DNA from: an uncultured archaeon
Lineage (GTDB): Archaea > Asgardarchaeota > Hermodarchaeia > Hermodarchaeales > Hermodarchaeaceae
Direction of reading: 5' to 3'
DNA: 13,460 nucleotides
Assembly: GCA_964347045.1 (NCBI GenBank)
Contig: CAYFXC010000016.1
Location: forward strand, 26,628-40,087
Shown: piece by piece, positions 8,269-13,460 of the stretch
Layout: each line of letters begins with the position of its first letter
Position numbering within the stretch: position 1 is the first letter of the stretch
The notes under the pieces: generated by a model
The model's database searches: none
What the model saw: the letters and a program-made list of their open reading frames with translations, nothing else
Told to the model about the DNA's origin: nothing
Program-made: the position numbers and the translations under genes

Positions 8269-9579
8269 TCACTTTTTCGAAGACTCCTTCTTGGATTTTA
8301 AGGCCTTATCCTGGGACTCTTTGGATTTCGTCTTCTTTTCTTTCTTTGCCGCTTTCTCAATCTTTGCCTTGGTAGCAGTCTTGGACTTGGCTTTTGGTTT
8401 CTCTTCCGCCTTCGGTTTCTTGGGCTTAGTTTCCGCCTTCGGTTTTGGCTTGGCTTTTTCTTTCTTTGCCTTTGGCTCAGCCTTTGTCTTTGCTTTGGGT
8501 TCCACTTTGGCCTTGGGCTTCGCTTTTGGTTTCTCCTCTACCTTCACCCGCTTAGCCTTAGGTTTGCCTTTCGGTTTCTCTTCTACCTTTTCCTTCTTCA
8601 CTTTGGGTTTGGCTTTGGGCTTCTTTGGTTCTTCCTTTACTTTCTTTGGCTTGGGTTTGACCTTGGGCTTTTCAGGTTCCTTTTCCGTGGGGGGTTCAAC
8701 TTTGGGTTCCTTTTTGGGTTTTGCCTTCGGCTTTGGCTTTTCAGGCGCGGGTTTCTCTTCAGGAGGCGGAACCGCTTCGGGGACTGGTTCAGGTAAAGGT
8801 TCTGGTGTTGGTTCAGGCTCGGGGACTATCGGAGCTTCTGGTTCAGCTGACTCGGGAGCCGGTTCAGGACCTTCTTCCACAAACTCTTCGATTGAAGGAG
8901 CCTTTTCAATAGGAAGTTCTTCTTCAACAACCTCCATTTCAGTAGCATCAGGGGCGGGAGCAGGAATGACTTGAACTTCCACTTCTTTATGAATAATCAC
9001 CGGATGATCAGGTGCAACAGTGTCTGGTAGCATTATTCGGACCTGGACACCAAGAATACCGGGTTTCATAATTGCAAAAGCCCACCCGTGACTCACGGCT
9101 TTTCGTACCGGTTCACCAGTTTTGGCAACGAAGCCACTGCGGAATTTCTGATATCGCGCCCGACGACTGGTGAGTTTACCTGAGATGGAAATTTCCACAC
9201 CTTTGGCACCTGCTCCAATGATGCGGCGAAGAACACCATAGGCTGCACGACGGAAGTGGTCACCCCGTTCAAGACGTTGTGCTAATCGTTCAGCCATAAT
9301 GGGACCATTTAATTCTGGTACTTCTACTTCGCTTACTTCAATTTGTGGCGCTTCTAACCCGAAATCGTGTTCTAGCGTTTCAGTTAATTCGCGGACCGTG
9401 GTTCCTCGTCGACCAATAACCATACCAGGACGTGCAGCATAGACAACAACGCGCATTCCCAATGGTGTTTTTTGGAGATCTACGCCAGCATAACCTGCAC
9501 GTCGCAGCTCTCGACGCAAGTAGTCATTTACTTTGACTTTCAATAACCCACGGTTGATAAAATGATCTTCTGCTGGCAT
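8269..9579 (-). CDS. rps3: 30S ribosomal protein uS3 with about 230 aa low-complexity C-terminal extension
   Basis: KH domain KTPLG.R..RPGMVIGRRG, HFRRA, GAKGVEI.ISGKL and KPGILGVQVRIM.P motifs; then a Pro/Glu-rich tract and a Lys/Pro/Ala-rich tract. Confidence 0.97.
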   Translation of the reverse strand: MPAEDHFINRGLLKVKVNDYLRRELRRAGYAGVDLQKTPLGMRVVVYAARPGMVIGRRGTTVRELTETLEHDFGLEAPQIEVSEVEVPELNGPIMAERLAQRLERGDHFRRAAYGVLRRIIGAGAKGVEISISGKLTSRRARYQKFRSGFVAKTGEPVRKAVSHGWAFAIMKPGILGVQVRIMLPDTVAPDHPVIIHKEVEVQVIPAPAPDATEMEVVEEELPIEKAPSIEEFVEEGPEPAPESAEPEAPIVPEPEPTPEPLPEPVPEAVPPPEEKPAPEKPKPKAKPKKEPKVEPPTEKEPEKPKVKPKPKKVKEEPKKPKAKPKVKKEKVEEKPKGKPKAKRVKVEEKPKAKPKAKVEPKAKTKAEPKAKKEKAKPKPKAETKPKKPKAEEKPKAKSKTATKAKIEKAAKKEKKTKSKESQDKALKSKKESSKK

Positions 9580-10208: not shown

Positions 10209-10712
10209 CTAGTCCTCTTCTAATGCAAAGGGTTTAGACCCTGTTACAATCACTTGGGGAAGCACATCACGATGCGTCTGAAGAAACGTAACATCCGCCT
10301 TTTTATCTCGCCCCGCATCGGGTAACAATTCTGGAATCGTTTCCACGCGACTGCCAATCGGATACCATCGTTGACACTTCTCGCACCGCATAGCCCCCAC
10401 TTGAATCTCAATCCCATGGAAATATTCTACCAAGGGCACCAAATCCGCGGGCTCAGGCTTCTGCTTCGATAACGCCGCAAACACCTTCCGGGCCTTTGCC
10501 AACCGCTGATCAAAGATCTTATCCTTCGACAGATTATGCACCGGCTCCAGCGACGGCTCACTCAACACGCCCCGCTGATGATGCATAACCAACTCCCCTG
10601 CTAACCCTTTTTTATCCTTCAAGCGATTTTTTTTCACATCCACCACATAGGTAGTCAACGGATGCTCCTTACAAATCGGACACGCTAAAATATTAAGTAA
10701 CCAGGGCTTCAT
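10209..10712 (-). CDS. trm112: Trm112-family methyltransferase activator, long form with a central insertion
   Basis: MKPWLLNILACPICK..PL and EIQVGAMRCEKCQRWYPI..IPELLPD: split Zn knuckles with all four Cys present; GAGGTTGA Shine-Dalgarno. Confidence 0.9.
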   Translation of the reverse strand: MKPWLLNILACPICKEHPLTTYVVDVKKNRLKDKKGLAGELVMHHQRGVLSEPSLEPVHNLSKDKIFDQRLAKARKVFAALSKQKPEPADLVPLVEYFHGIEIQVGAMRCEKCQRWYPIGSRVETIPELLPDAGRDKKADVTFLQTHRDVLPQVIVTGSKPFALEED

Positions 10713-10817: not shown

Positions 10818-10838
10818 CCATTGCTTCAAACAATAAGT

Positions 10839-11450
10839 ATGCCAACACTCCTTGCACACATCGCCATTGCAGGCCTCATCTGCCTTGTTCTCGTCAAAGA
10901 GCCCAAATGGGTGCTACTCCTCGCCTGGGTCGCCATTCTCCCCGACTTCGATATCTTCTGGGGATTACATCGCATCGCCTTCCATTCCCTCATTCTACTA
11001 GTGCCGATCAGCGTAGCCATCATCGGTATTACCTATAACTGGTTTCCGACCTACAAGGAACCCGCCTTCATCGTCGCCTTCTCCCTCCTTAGCCACACCA
11101 TCCTCGACTGGCTCCAATACTGGAACGCCCTTCTTTGGCCCATCCCCCTCGCCTTCTGGCTCAACCTCCACATCATCCTCCTCCCCACCAGCCCCATTCC
11201 CACTCCCCTCCTCAGCATCGGACCCATGATTGCCCCCCTCCACGTCCTCTTCGAACCCTCCACCGGCACCCTCTTCGACCCCTACACTACCACCCTTTTT
11301 ATTCTCTTCCTCGCAGTCGCCGTCATCCGCACTTGGCCCAACATCTTCAAAGGACTCCGAAAACCCCAAAACGATACCAACGCACCTACGACACCGGACG
11401 AACCAACCGATACCGACCCCGCCCCACCCGCACAAACACGCCCTGTTTAA
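10839..11450 (+). CDS. Membrane-bound metal-dependent hydrolase (YdjM/DUF457-like); start at ATG 10839
   Basis: N-terminal AH, LPDFD, HRIAFHSL and SHTILD motifs with hydrophobic helices between them; Pro/Thr-rich tail. Confidence 0.85.
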   Translation: MPTLLAHIAIAGLICLVLVKEPKWVLLLAWVAILPDFDIFWGLHRIAFHSLILLVPISVAIIGITYNWFPTYKEPAFIVAFSLLSHTILDWLQYWNALLWPIPLAFWLNLHIILLPTSPIPTPLLSIGPMIAPLHVLFEPSTGTLFDPYTTTLFILFLAVAVIRTWPNIFKGLRKPQNDTNAPTTPDEPTDTDPAPPAQTRPV

Positions 11451-13251
11451 TCAGCTTCGCCATCCGATCCGCCAAATACGCAGAATACCGATTCGCCACC
11501 AACCCCTGTAACACCAAATCCCCCTTCAACTTCCCCAGCGTTACCTCTCCGGCTTGGGCTTCCGCCAATTCAACAATACGATCTCGAACCGCCGCCGCAC
11601 TCTGCAACTTCACTGCAAACTCAGCATCCAACAACTTCTCCGACCGCCCCACCTCCCGCCCATGACGTTCCAACCACTCCTCAAACCCAATCGCTCCCAT
11701 ACTCAACTGCCGATACACCACCAAGTCCTTGCCCAAGAAATCACACTGCTCATACCGCGGCGCCACCTTCCTATCAAATCCCACCACGACCCCCCGCGAC
11801 ACCTCATCAATACCCCATTCCACCACCTCAGCCAGCGCAACGACCCACTTGCCATCCATCCACTGCCGACGCCCCTGTAAATACGCCCTTGTCGTCGTCT
11901 CCGGCAGCCCCGCCACCCGCGCCACGGCCGCCCCCGTTCCAAATTCATCCAGCAGCGCCTTTCGCAATTTGCTCCACCACCCCTCCTCCATCACCACCCG
12001 ATCCGCTACTCTCCATCCCCGCGCCCAAACCCGCTCCAAAAACGCTTCACCCTTCACCGTCGTCTGATACATTGTAGTAAACTTTTGTTTTTCCACCACC
12101 CGAATCCATCCTAACTTTCGCAACCGCTGCACCACCTTAAACACAAAATCCTCACGCACCACAAACCGCCGCGCCACCTCCCCCACAGACCCGACATCCC
12201 GCAGCCTAATCAACGTCAAAAAATCCAAATCAAACCCATCCAATCCCCGCTCTTGCCAAACCCTGTCACATTCTAACTGAAACGCCAACCGCTCCGCCCG
12301 CCCCGGATGCGTAAAACCAATGTGCTCCGCATACCACCGATACACCGGTCGATACACATCCAAAATAAACCAACTCCGAAACGCCTTCACCGCCCCCAGT
12401 GATTTCATCAATTCCTCACACTCATCATGAGGCAACGTCGCTCCCATCAACTCGAGAATGAGTGTCCGCATTTGCTCAAGAATTGTTGACCCACCGGATG
12501 TAAATCGAATCGAATGCGTCCCCACATGCCCATCATCATCCCCAAACGTCCGCACCATCTCTGCCTTCAAATCCAAAGGTAATTTTAAAAATACAGCTGG
12601 TAAAGATCCTGATTTCTCATCAAATCTAGCATCAGGATACAAGTAGCGAATTAGATAACCAATCCATTTTGTAAAAGCTACATATGAACGGGATTTTCCA
12701 CTTCGATCAGAATAACTACGAGTACAGTCTGAAACATCTCCGAACACTGCTGACATTTTGTGAAGAAACTGATTTCGGAGGAAGGCACTTCCATTAGTAT
12801 AGTGCGGAGTTTTTGAAGTGCCATATTCTTCAGTTAATGTTCCATCTCCAATTAAATGGATCACCAACCGAATAAGATGAACATCCTCTTTAATTGGTAG
12901 TCGCGGATTTCGTAAAATCCCTGATCTTCCATAACCTTTGATGGCGCGAATATTCCTTTCTATGTCAGAGAGAAGGTCTGGGTTTTCCTCCAATTCATTA
13001 TAGGTTTTAAGGAGTTTCAGCAGAATTTCAAGTTCGAGGAAAACTGGCTCCAACAAATCCTCGCGATAGTCTACAGCATATCGAGCTAGCAAATCAATCT
13101 CTACTTCAAGCTTCTTCGAAAGAGCACTCAAAGAGATATTGCTCAGAATTTTTGAAAAGAACGTTTTACCAAAATTTTGGTTCAATTGTACGAAAATATT
13201 CTTTCTAAGAAAATCAGTTATATGAAACACACGTAGGTTCTGCTTACTCAT
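11386..13251 (-). CDS. Free-standing two-motif LAGLIDADG (intein/DOD-type) endonuclease-like protein with N-terminal HTH and C-terminal wHTH-HTH-wHTH modules
   Basis: Motif 1 RLVIHLIGDG (D136) followed by YTN..L..F..VFG; LP..LP..K motif 2 MVRTFGDDDG (D240) followed by IRFTS..ILEQ..L; YAEHIGFTHP block; no intein splice termini (no N-terminal Cys/Ser block, no terminal HN). Confidence 0.8.
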   Translation of the reverse strand: MSKQNLRVFHITDFLRKNIFVQLNQNFGKTFFSKILSNISLSALSKKLEVEIDLLARYAVDYREDLLEPVFLELEILLKLLKTYNELEENPDLLSDIERNIRAIKGYGRSGILRNPRLPIKEDVHLIRLVIHLIGDGTLTEEYGTSKTPHYTNGSAFLRNQFLHKMSAVFGDVSDCTRSYSDRSGKSRSYVAFTKWIGYLIRYLYPDARFDEKSGSLPAVFLKLPLDLKAEMVRTFGDDDGHVGTHSIRFTSGGSTILEQMRTLILELMGATLPHDECEELMKSLGAVKAFRSWFILDVYRPVYRWYAEHIGFTHPGRAERLAFQLECDRVWQERGLDGFDLDFLTLIRLRDVGSVGEVARRFVVREDFVFKVVQRLRKLGWIRVVEKQKFTTMYQTTVKGEAFLERVWARGWRVADRVVMEEGWWSKLRKALLDEFGTGAAVARVAGLPETTTRAYLQGRRQWMDGKWVVALAEVVEWGIDEVSRGVVVGFDRKVAPRYEQCDFLGKDLVVYRQLSMGAIGFEEWLERHGREVGRSEKLLDAEFAVKLQSAAAVRDRIVELAEAQAGEVTLGKLKGDLVLQGLVANRYSAYLADRMAKLIKQGVFVRVGRGRYRLVRPVS

Positions 13252-13253
13252 AT

Positions 13254-13269
13254 TTCATCGAAAGATGAA
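13254..13269. repeat. 6-bp inverted repeat (hairpin) immediately upstream of the endonuclease start codon
   Basis: TTCATC-GAAA-GATGAA; ends 2 nt before the ATG at 13251. Confidence 0.7.
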
Positions 13270-13280
13270 TTAAAAGGAGA

Positions 13281-13288
13281 TACTTAAA
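13281..13288 (-). promoter_or_regulatory. Putative TATA box of the LAGLIDADG gene
   Basis: TTTAAGTA on the minus strand, 30-37 nt upstream of the ATG, framed by a GGAG/CTCC inverted repeat. Confidence 0.55.
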
Positions 13289-13309
13289 CTCCACAATTAC
13301 AATGAATCT

Positions 13310-13338
13310 AATCTATATAGATTTTCAAAATCTATATA
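13310..13338. repeat. Overlapping perfect palindromes directly after the rps19 stop
   Basis: TATATAGATTTT-C-AAAATCTATATA (13314-13338, 12-bp arms) overlaps AATCTATATAGATT (13310-13323). Confidence 0.9.
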
Positions 13339-13339
13339 T

Positions 13340-13460
13340 TTATTTGAGAGGTACATATTGGCTTCCCCTTGTAGCTCCTATGCCGGGGTTGCCGTGGCGG
13401 ACGGTTTTGTTGGTGGGGGCGTATTCGCCGAGGTAGTGGCCGATGTGTTCGATTTTGATG
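13340..13460 (-). CDS. rps19: 30S ribosomal protein uS19, 3' end (partial, runs off the window; not in the ORF track)
   Basis: Hand translation ...[39 protein letters not shown], matching the archaeal/eukaryotic uS19 C-terminus IGHYLGE..HG.PG.GAT..S..VPLK. Confidence 0.96.

Follow-up and report, generated by a model that had tools for sequence, protein, structure and literature searches.

The seg and mob genes of phage T4 are free-standing homing endonuclease genes that undergo intronless homing. ORF621, an open reading frame (ORF) of 621 codons in a contig of an uncultured archaeon of the Hermodarchaeaceae (GCA_964347045.1, contig CAYFXC010000016.1, positions 26,628 to 40,087; this whole stretch of 13,460 nucleotides (nt) is called the window), likewise lies between conserved genes, is present or absent at one site, and has flanks that look as if they had been co-converted. 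It differs from the T4 genes in being of the LAGLIDADG type, in residing on an archaeal chromosome, in its large helix-turn-helix (HTH) additions, and in that only half of the putative enzyme appears to be exchanged between occupied alleles. ORF621 is probably a mobile LAGLIDADG-type gene whose N-terminal cassette is reassorted by homologous recombination and whose homologous flanks are skewed in composition.

In Type I restriction systems, the target-recognition domains of HsdS are shuffled between conserved segments that act as crossover anchors. ORF621 similarly has a variable DNA-recognition module, conserved flanking anchors and incongruent module phylogenies, but its fold and system are unrelated to those of HsdS and it has no methylase partner. 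WhiA, a universal bacterial regulator that has lost its catalytic residues, shares with ORF621 the order of two LAGLIDADG domains followed by an HTH domain, whereas ORF621 keeps the catalytic residues and is patchily distributed. LAGLIDADG enzymes are the basis of engineered meganucleases, and to our knowledge the swapping of half-domains to alter specificity has so far been a laboratory procedure only. As in the engineered chimera E-DreI (PDB 1mow), a LAGLIDADG domain of ORF621 is joined to a different partner at the helix interface; unlike the laboratory-made enzyme, the exchange appears to be natural and recurrent and to affect two loci (domain I of ORF621 and domain II of an intein in DP2, the large subunit of DNA polymerase D (PolD)). 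Two independent natural loci that exchange one LAGLIDADG half at the inter-domain junction would amount to a ready set of natural chimeras.

The WHO elements and HO of yeasts have an intein-related LAGLIDADG-type nuclease gene directly downstream of a housekeeping gene (PMC7282813). WHO takes the place of the 3' end of FBA1, fragments of which remain, and allele-specific cleavage has been proposed (Coughlan et al. 2020, PMC7282813). ORF621, too, is directly behind a conserved gene, rps19, and adjacent parts of the locus have discordant phylogenies, but the discordant part is inside the nuclease gene itself, the tail of rps19 is equally relaxed at empty sites, and there is no second rps19 fragment: a search for a relic in the genome at E<=10 matched only the single rps19 split over contigs C41 and C16, so a WHO-type mechanism is not supported.

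Separate histories of the two halves of ORF621

ORF621 has seven full-length, colinear homologues in two genera, with 57-71% identity, all of them behind rps19. In genus g2, the loci L006, L007 and L008 are 80-85% identical over amino acids (aa) 240-621 and 89-95% identical in rps19, but only 46-49% identical over aa 1-230. Between L006 and L007, an identity of 47% in the N half stands against 85% in the C half, and L002 and L003 show the reverse, with 88% in the N half versus 75% in the C half. At the DNA level, L006 and L007 are 91-98% identical in rps19, 34-66% from the rps19 tail to ~aa 217, and 80-94% beyond it, and L002 and L003 are 84-97% identical from rps19 to ~aa 235 versus 55-70% in the upstream gene; rps19 DNA is 91-98% identical between species. 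Synonymous divergence (dS) between L002 and L003 is.23-.48 in the N half versus.89 in aa 341-618, while between L006 and L007 it is saturated in the N half versus.44 in aa 341-618, and this reversed order indicates that the halves differ in age, not in rate. The ratio of nonsynonymous to synonymous divergence (dN/dS) is well below 1 in all parts (0.12-0.23 in the N half of L002/L003), and positive selection as the cause of N-half divergence was rejected at the region level (dN/dS 0.12-0.44).

Separate trees of the two halves, which the original prediction had called for, were built from 26 sequences and compared by approximately unbiased (AU) tests. They conflict: N data reject the g2 clade of the C tree (AU p 1e-46), and C data reject the main clade of the N tree (AU p 4e-8), so that neither congruence nor uniform divergence was found. 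The N half falls into at least eight deep classes of star-like divergence, and the C half into only two main clades, with a tree that follows the species groups set by rps19; four C halves of genus g2 carry four different N classes. These comparisons support the view that the intergenic region and codons 1-230 assort independently of codons 240-621.

The original prediction was right to see in the N half an exchangeable module with conserved sequence as its anchors. Its unit of exchange had also included the tail of rps19, and in this it went too far. The intergenic region, which in L004-L008 is 64-106 nt long without any relation in sequence or length, can be kept in the unit along with the N half. 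The rps19 tail differs at 11 of 45 nt between L002 and L003 although their cassettes are ~90% identical, and it is equally relaxed in its third positions at loci of genomes G001 and G013, which lack the ORF; the data therefore do not assign the tail to the cassette. General loss of bias at gene ends was rejected as a cause of the relaxation, since among 36 ORFs rich in C at third codon positions (C3) the tails have a mean C3 of.44 and the bodies.47; the actin gene and one hydrogenase gene, unlike this set in general, do relax at their ends. The idea that conserved motifs serve as crossover anchors fits the clustering of breakpoints near LAGLIDADG motif 2, but other breakpoints lie elsewhere: protein mosaics switch at ~aa 150-300 and also at ~aa 400, and an assembly graph branches at 12350-12379.

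The ORF621 protein and its family

An AlphaFold2 (AF2) model of the ORF621 protein, computed from 29 relatives (predicted local distance difference test score, pLDDT, 86), has the pseudo-dimeric alpha-beta-beta-alpha-beta-beta-alpha fold. In Foldseek it matches PI-TkoII, the TliVMA intein homing endonuclease, I-DmoI (template modelling (TM) score 0.65-0.69), I-Tsp061I and E-DreI with probability 1.0, and WhiA (PDB 3hyi, 8dy9) is also among the matches. Both LAGLIDADG helices end in a conserved acidic residue followed by Gly, in motif 1 (HLIGDG, aa 132-137, nt 12858-12841) and motif 2 (FGDDDG, aa 236-241, nt 12546-12529). In 119 relatives, D136, G137 and D239 never vary, and position 240 is occupied by either E or D throughout, which fits an active nuclease as far as residues can tell. 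In the C half, Pfam gave weak matches to HTH and winged HTH (wHTH) models; the relative P0040 passes PF14528 (26.1 bits versus a cut-off of 22.5) and P0038 and P0033 fall slightly below it.

An exhaustive profile search collected 535 proteins, mostly archaeal ones of ~375 aa, including one source-named Woesearchaeota. The ~375-aa relatives align to positions 5 to 330-400 of ORF621, that is, to the N-terminal helical domain, both LAGLIDADG domains and the winged helix, and the two LAGLIDADG domains are contiguous in ~500 archaeal relatives. The ~620-aa form consists of this core plus residues ~400-621; the extra C-terminal HTH region is an addition found in Thor-type Asgard archaea, and the close relatives bear the source names 'Promethearchaeota archaeon' and 'Candidatus Thorarchaeota archaeon'. 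Between classes, identity in aa 1-100, the N-terminal helical (HTH-like) domain, is as low as 16-40%. A search of PDB sequences with the family profile gave weak MarR/wHTH matches only, and PADLOC gave only a marginal AbiEi match (E 0.006). No Intein_splicing domain was matched in ORF621, which is a separate ORF with its own start, whereas DP2 of the same genome has one. Judged from the model, ORF621 is a free-standing gene of the single-chain, double-LAGLIDADG endonuclease type, in a family that has no Pfam model yet; neither this family nor skew near intein sites was the subject of any paper found in literature searches.

An antisense gene overlapping the C half was rejected: the plus-strand ORFs there are fragmented shadow frames of the stop-poor, C-rich strand, whereas the minus-strand frame of ORF621 is conserved under the low dN/dS given above. 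In other archaea, ~375-aa members of the family adjoin housekeeping genes, in one case directly upstream of SRP54 and in another beside an AlaX-like gene and Dus, and one is beside a reverse transcriptase gene (contigs examined: L013 of P0049 and L011 of P0040).

Composition break and strand-asymmetric flanks

The genome assembly comprises 83 contigs and 2.58 Mb, with a GC content of 0.4286 (standard deviation (SD) 0.034 in 500-nt windows) and a mean absolute GC skew of 0.087. As the original prediction had described, an AT-rich, weakly skewed part from about 12580 to 13381 contrasts with a GC-rich, skewed remainder, and the reading frame stays open across the transition. In 200-nt windows, GC is 0.31-0.42 and GC skew is -0.03 to -0.08 over 12600-13399, versus 0.53-0.64 and -0.49 to -0.64 over 11000-12399. 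Third positions of codons 1-230 are G.17, C.13, A.30 and T.40, and those of codons 240-621 are G.60, C.04, A.12 and T.24. A likelihood change-point scan of the third-position frequencies of G (G3) and of G+C (GC3) in all 1001 ORFs of at least 300 codons in the genome ranked ORF621 first in both: its log-likelihood ratio is 60.9 for G3 (next 38.3, median 1.9) and 35.2 for GC3 (next 22.7). The break is at codon 225 (nt ~12577), a few codons before motif 2, with which the left transition had been said to coincide. The right transition is likewise where it had been placed, at the GNPG motif of rps19: third positions are nearly all C or A up to this motif and mixed in the last 13 codons.

The AT-rich part had been regarded as the odd one, and this has to be reversed. 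The GC content of the N half, ~1-1.5 SD under the genome mean, is normal for this genome; it is the GC-rich, skewed part of ORF621 that stands out, as the most skewed stretch in the genome, and the G/T-only flank is present even without the gene. All eight loci examined in the two genera share the composition profile and the third-position regime, with the change point at aa ~217-233 in four of them and, less sharply, within aa 185-284 in the remaining four. In a 35%-identical relative from another lineage, GC3 rises only mildly and G/C skew is absent. Since the break is common to all eight loci, the mosaic is old and was not made in this genome. The sharp break at codon 225 could suggest a foreign AT-rich N half recently joined to a resident GC-rich C half, but this is scarcely credible when the same break recurs in two genera, the N half is normal for the genome, both LAGLIDADG domains are contiguous in ~500 relatives, and the unit of insertion and deletion is the whole gene. 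The chimera that had been predicted survives in the sense that trees and dS give the halves different histories; it is neither recent nor an ancient fusion of unrelated halves at residue 235. The composition break does not point to a foreign source; it is the border between a heterologous, unskewed centre and a homologous, skewed flank.

The skew covers a whole region, irrespective of gene borders and coding strand. In rps19, rebuilt in full from contigs C16 and C41 across a 55-nt overlap, twofold degenerate sites have C24/T1 among pyrimidines and A21/G2 among purines, and 54 of 58 fourfold sites are C. In the C half of ORF621, twofold pyrimidine sites are T60/C5 and 135 of 193 fourfold sites are G. 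The YdjM-like gene on the opposite strand (C3 0.60, C at 77 of 116 fourfold sites) has the same skew at the DNA level as the C half of ORF621. The bias fades outward, the third-position frequency of G+T being 0.74 in trm112, 0.61 in rpl22 and 0.48 in rps3. The last ~120 codons of the beta-propeller gene found downstream in relatives are skewed at occupied loci and also at the empty locus of G013. The other ribosomal protein genes in the window have a C3 of only.15-.27, so the C3 of ~.7 in rps19 is local. Read 5' to 3', either strand passes from C/A-rich DNA through the unskewed centre to G/T-rich DNA, and genome-wide, adjacent segments of opposite skew have this polarity 17 times and the reverse 6 times.

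Codon usage combined with uneven rates, in which the C half and its neighbours would use a low-expression G/T set and rps19 a high-expression C set while the N half evolves fast, is a very improbable explanation. Actin and NiFe hydrogenases are indeed among the C3-rich genes, a G3/T3 bias is found in a few other genes (such as those of an AsnC-type regulator and a flavin reductase), and the low identity of aa 1-100 between classes would agree with a fast N half. However, two expression levels are impossible within one gene, and in MCM, DP2 and the beta-propeller gene the bias changes within the coding sequence. Twenty other ribosomal protein genes of the window lack a high C3, and the reversed dS contradicts a fast N half, the N half of L002/L003 being younger than the C half.

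A similar layout in the PolD DP2 and MCM genes

The next strongest intragenic G3 shifts in the genome after ORF621 are in the genes for the MCM helicase and for DP2, which carries a LAGLIDADG intein. DP2 has a C/A-rich stretch at codons ~820-1236, which comprise the N-extein flank, the splicing domain and nuclease domain I. An unskewed stretch follows at codons 1240-1437, with nuclease domain II and the C-terminus of the intein, and the C-extein from ~1441 (to 1560) is G/T-rich. Between G008 and G001 the arms of DP2 are 83-100% identical and the centre (aa ~1239-1442) only 23-59%. By these sequence comparisons, the DP2 centre appears to be another half-nuclease cassette that is swapped, with the inter-domain junction and the host flank as its limits. 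A second type of DP2 intein (L048, L049) is unskewed over its whole length.

The MCM gene of this genome is intein-free, and at Walker A (aa ~340) its bias changes from codons ending in C/A to codons ending in G/T; this position is the MCM-a intein site (PMC10643990). Six relatives have an intein at this site and three have one at a second site (aa ~412-424). The C3-rich left arm of MCM is strong in the intein-bearing genomes of genus g1 and nearly absent in the intein-free G002 and in four intein-free genomes of other families.

Presence and absence of the gene behind rps19

In G001 and G013, rps19 is followed by an AT-rich spacer of 101 or 368 nt and then by the convergent beta-propeller gene, without ORF621; in G003 and G008, an insert of 1.96 kb with ORF621 occupies exactly the same place. 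Homology between empty and occupied loci ends at the stop codon of rps19 and at the stop of the downstream gene, and G001 and G008 are 92% identical upstream. Occupied and empty alleles of one site, as expected of a mobile gene, are thus both represented, and the whole gene behaves as a mobile or losable unit behind rps19. It is found in 11 of the 18 genomes of the family, and the 35%-identical relative is also behind rps19, among otherwise different neighbours. Searches of the genome under study by tblastn and blastn found ORF621 and the skewed DNA only once.

Alternatively, ORF621 could be a domesticated DNA-binding protein, either a regulator comparable to WhiA or a defence-type nuclease, whose N-terminal recognition module was diversified by balancing or diversifying selection, as a trans-species polymorphism with occasional recombination and without homing. 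The position behind rps19, kept down to the 35%-identical relative, the presence in more than half of the family genomes, the dN/dS well below 1 in all parts, the several HTH/wHTH domains with the weak AbiEi-like match, and WhiA among the structural matches would all suit such a function. On balance it is rather unlikely, for the catalytic acidic residues are invariant, unlike those of WhiA, the gene is cleanly present or absent between species that are 92% identical upstream, and the same arrangement of cassette and skew is found in a bona fide intein.

Proposed mechanism and points against it

The favoured explanation, a mobile gene with a reassorted N-terminal cassette, starts from what is directly established, namely the fold, the conserved catalytic residues, presence and absence at the same site, the independent histories of the halves and the layout at other homing sites. 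The intergenic region and codons 1 to ~230 would be a cassette with several deeply diverged classes, which homologous recombination would reassort against the conserved remainder of ORF621, anchored in rps19 on one side and in the conserved DNA of motif 2 and domain II on the other. The protein, as a putative nuclease, would cut DNA, and cutting would drive the exchange of cassettes. The unskewed centre would be the part that is heterologous between alleles and copied whole, and the arms would be the homologous DNA in which pairing, resynthesis and mismatch correction occur during repeated break repair. The skew may then have built up in the homologous flanks as a trace of break repair or gene conversion. 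On the strand that leads 5' to 3' outward from the centre, a strand-polar bias would prefer G to T, and either of these by far to A and C. One candidate source of such a bias is break-induced synthesis across the site, which would leave long nascent strands exposed; other candidates are biased misincorporation or mismatch repair in gap filling, or local origin-like synthesis.

It is possible, though doubtful, that the process is one of half-enzyme homing, in which rival alleles attack each other, one half of the enzyme and the junction are replaced, and the C/A to G/T skew is a scar of biased repair. The specificity of the nuclease would then change by cassette exchange, and the skew would represent an undescribed strand-asymmetric bias of break repair or gene conversion in Asgard archaea. 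Such a bias would fix nearly every silent site and, as a side effect, make the flanking DNA near-identical between species. The succession of a C/A-only arm, an unskewed centre and a G/T-only arm may serve as a cheap signature by which homing sites and their heterologous cores can be located in uncultured Asgard genomes, and it points to a polarity of archaeal break repair that was not known before.

Several points weigh against the mobile-cassette explanation. The ORF621 protein itself (P0001) has no match in Pfam, including its LAGLIDADG models, or in NCBIfam. The distribution over 11 of 18 genomes and the purifying selection also fit a domesticated function. Transitions alone do not account for the large excess of G over T at fourfold sites, and deamination of resected 3' tails was rejected as the source of the skew, as it predicts the opposite polarity. 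Two other strong flips lie between convergent, probably highly expressed genes (actin and hydrogenase), to which codon selection may contribute. Finally, all sequences are metagenome assemblies that are repeatedly broken at the junction, and some of the mosaics could be mis-joins.

In an assembly artefact of this kind, exact k-mers common to co-occurring Thor-type species in rps19 and motif 2 would have joined halves across species. Contigs or scaffolds do break at aa ~232-276 in at least four public assemblies, contigs end inside rps19 both in this genome and in G012, and there is a branch in the Logan graph at 12350-12379. The assemblies probably break because rps19 DNA is near-identical between co-occurring species, and the conserved anchors account for the position of the breaks inside rps19 and at motif 2. 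An artefact is nevertheless improbable as the cause of the mosaics: a shuffling of labels cannot alter the shape of the trees, with at least eight deep N classes versus two main C clades, and would have to explain four C halves of genus g2 with four different N classes; P0004, P0012 and P0023 were recovered at full length by more than one source, including Logan assemblies; Logan contigs (k=31) stop at branches, so that a mis-join there is taken as unlikely; and the same pattern occurs in DP2. This DNA was found only in the probable source run, two sister runs containing short conserved pieces only. Among the k=31 contigs of the source run, those of two C-half variants, ~83% identical and with depths of 8.0 and 6.8, stop at 12350-12379, where one contig (depth 12.5) takes over and extends across the N half and rps19; this suggests that two C halves feed one N module, although the depth argument (8.0 + 6.8 versus 12.5) is approximate and could reflect GC bias. 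Genes that seemed to consist of the C half alone (P0026-P0028, 356-358 aa) were rejected as such, as their contigs start, or their scaffold has an N-gap, at aa ~232-256.

The two other flips have neighbours of their own. One (C30:2903-5247, L017) has the actin gene (C3.64) on one side and, convergent with it, a 377-aa ORF (C30:4114-5247) on the other; this ORF contains an LITDGG stretch, is of no known family, has no Pfam match and shows only weak similarity to the ORF621 family (hhalign E 0.16). The skewed DNA of C30 runs on to ~14 kb and includes the G3-rich gene of an AsnC-type regulator on the other strand. At the other flip, beside a NiFe hydrogenase gene, a 656-aa ORF without a Pfam match (C3:90560-92530, L018:1561-3531) has a GC3 of.61 up to codon 345 and.34 beyond. 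It weakly resembles aa 108-213 of ORF621 (NPRFP..., YPNARLPE; hhalign E 0.013) and may be a diverged relative.

Other features of the locus

The window is the end of contig C16, which ends within rps19; its last 55 nt (13406-13460) overlap exactly with C41:6528-6582, and C41 carries the remainder of rps19. The order on the minus strand is the 3' end of rps19, a spacer of 88 nt, ORF621, a Trm112-like gene, rpl22, rps3 and further ribosomal protein genes (Table 1).

Table 1. Coordinates of features in the window and of the two other genes with a similar layout (minus, feature read on the reverse strand)
Feature	Location	Strand	Match or remark
rps19 (uS19), 3' end, cut by contig end	13459..13340	minus	Pfam Ribosomal_S19
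rps19 body, left skew arm	13382..13459	minus	third positions nearly only C/A
rps19 tail, last 13 codons and stop	13340..13381	minus	protein invariant, synonymous sites mixed, lineage-variable
AT-rich intergenic region, putative part of the variable cassette	13252..13339	minus	unrelated sequence in L004-L008
ORF621, whole gene (621 aa)	13251..11386	minus	open frame throughout
ORF621 codons 1-225: HTH-like helical N domain and LAGLIDADG domain I	12577..13251	minus	unskewed centre, putative exchanged cassette
ORF621 codons 226-621: LAGLIDADG domain II, winged helix, C-terminal HTH region	11386..12576	minus	right skew arm
Assembly-graph branch point	12350..12379		k=31, source run
YdjM-like membrane protein gene, convergent with ORF621	10821..11450	plus	Pfam YdjM, 29.6 bits
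Trm112-like gene	10209..10712	minus	Pfam and NCBIfam Trm112; outer part of right skew arm
PolD DP2 gene with intein	C1:27291-32384		L027, L043; relatives L044-L049
MCM gene, intein-free here	C1:205640-207715		L026, L029; relatives L030-L042

ORF621 and the YdjM-like gene overlap by 65 nt (11386-11450), and both the overlap and the antisense-coded tail of the YdjM-like protein (PTDTDP) recur in relatives. Directly after the stop codon of rps19, at ~13314-13338, is a 25-nt palindrome (TATATAGAT..ATCTATATA), with a conserved stem and a variable loop in L001-L003; it is absent from the other cassette classes and could be a terminator or an operator. At L002-L008, L023 and L024, a divergent NAD-dependent epimerase-like gene takes the place of rpl2 upstream of rps19, which is therefore separated from the remaining S10-type operon and begins a unit of its own. 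The product of rps3 is a protein of 436 aa with a C-terminal tail of ~170 residues rich in Lys, Glu and Pro (8269-8780, minus strand); this tail causes the AT skew there (-0.75) and the shift in G3 at codon 268.

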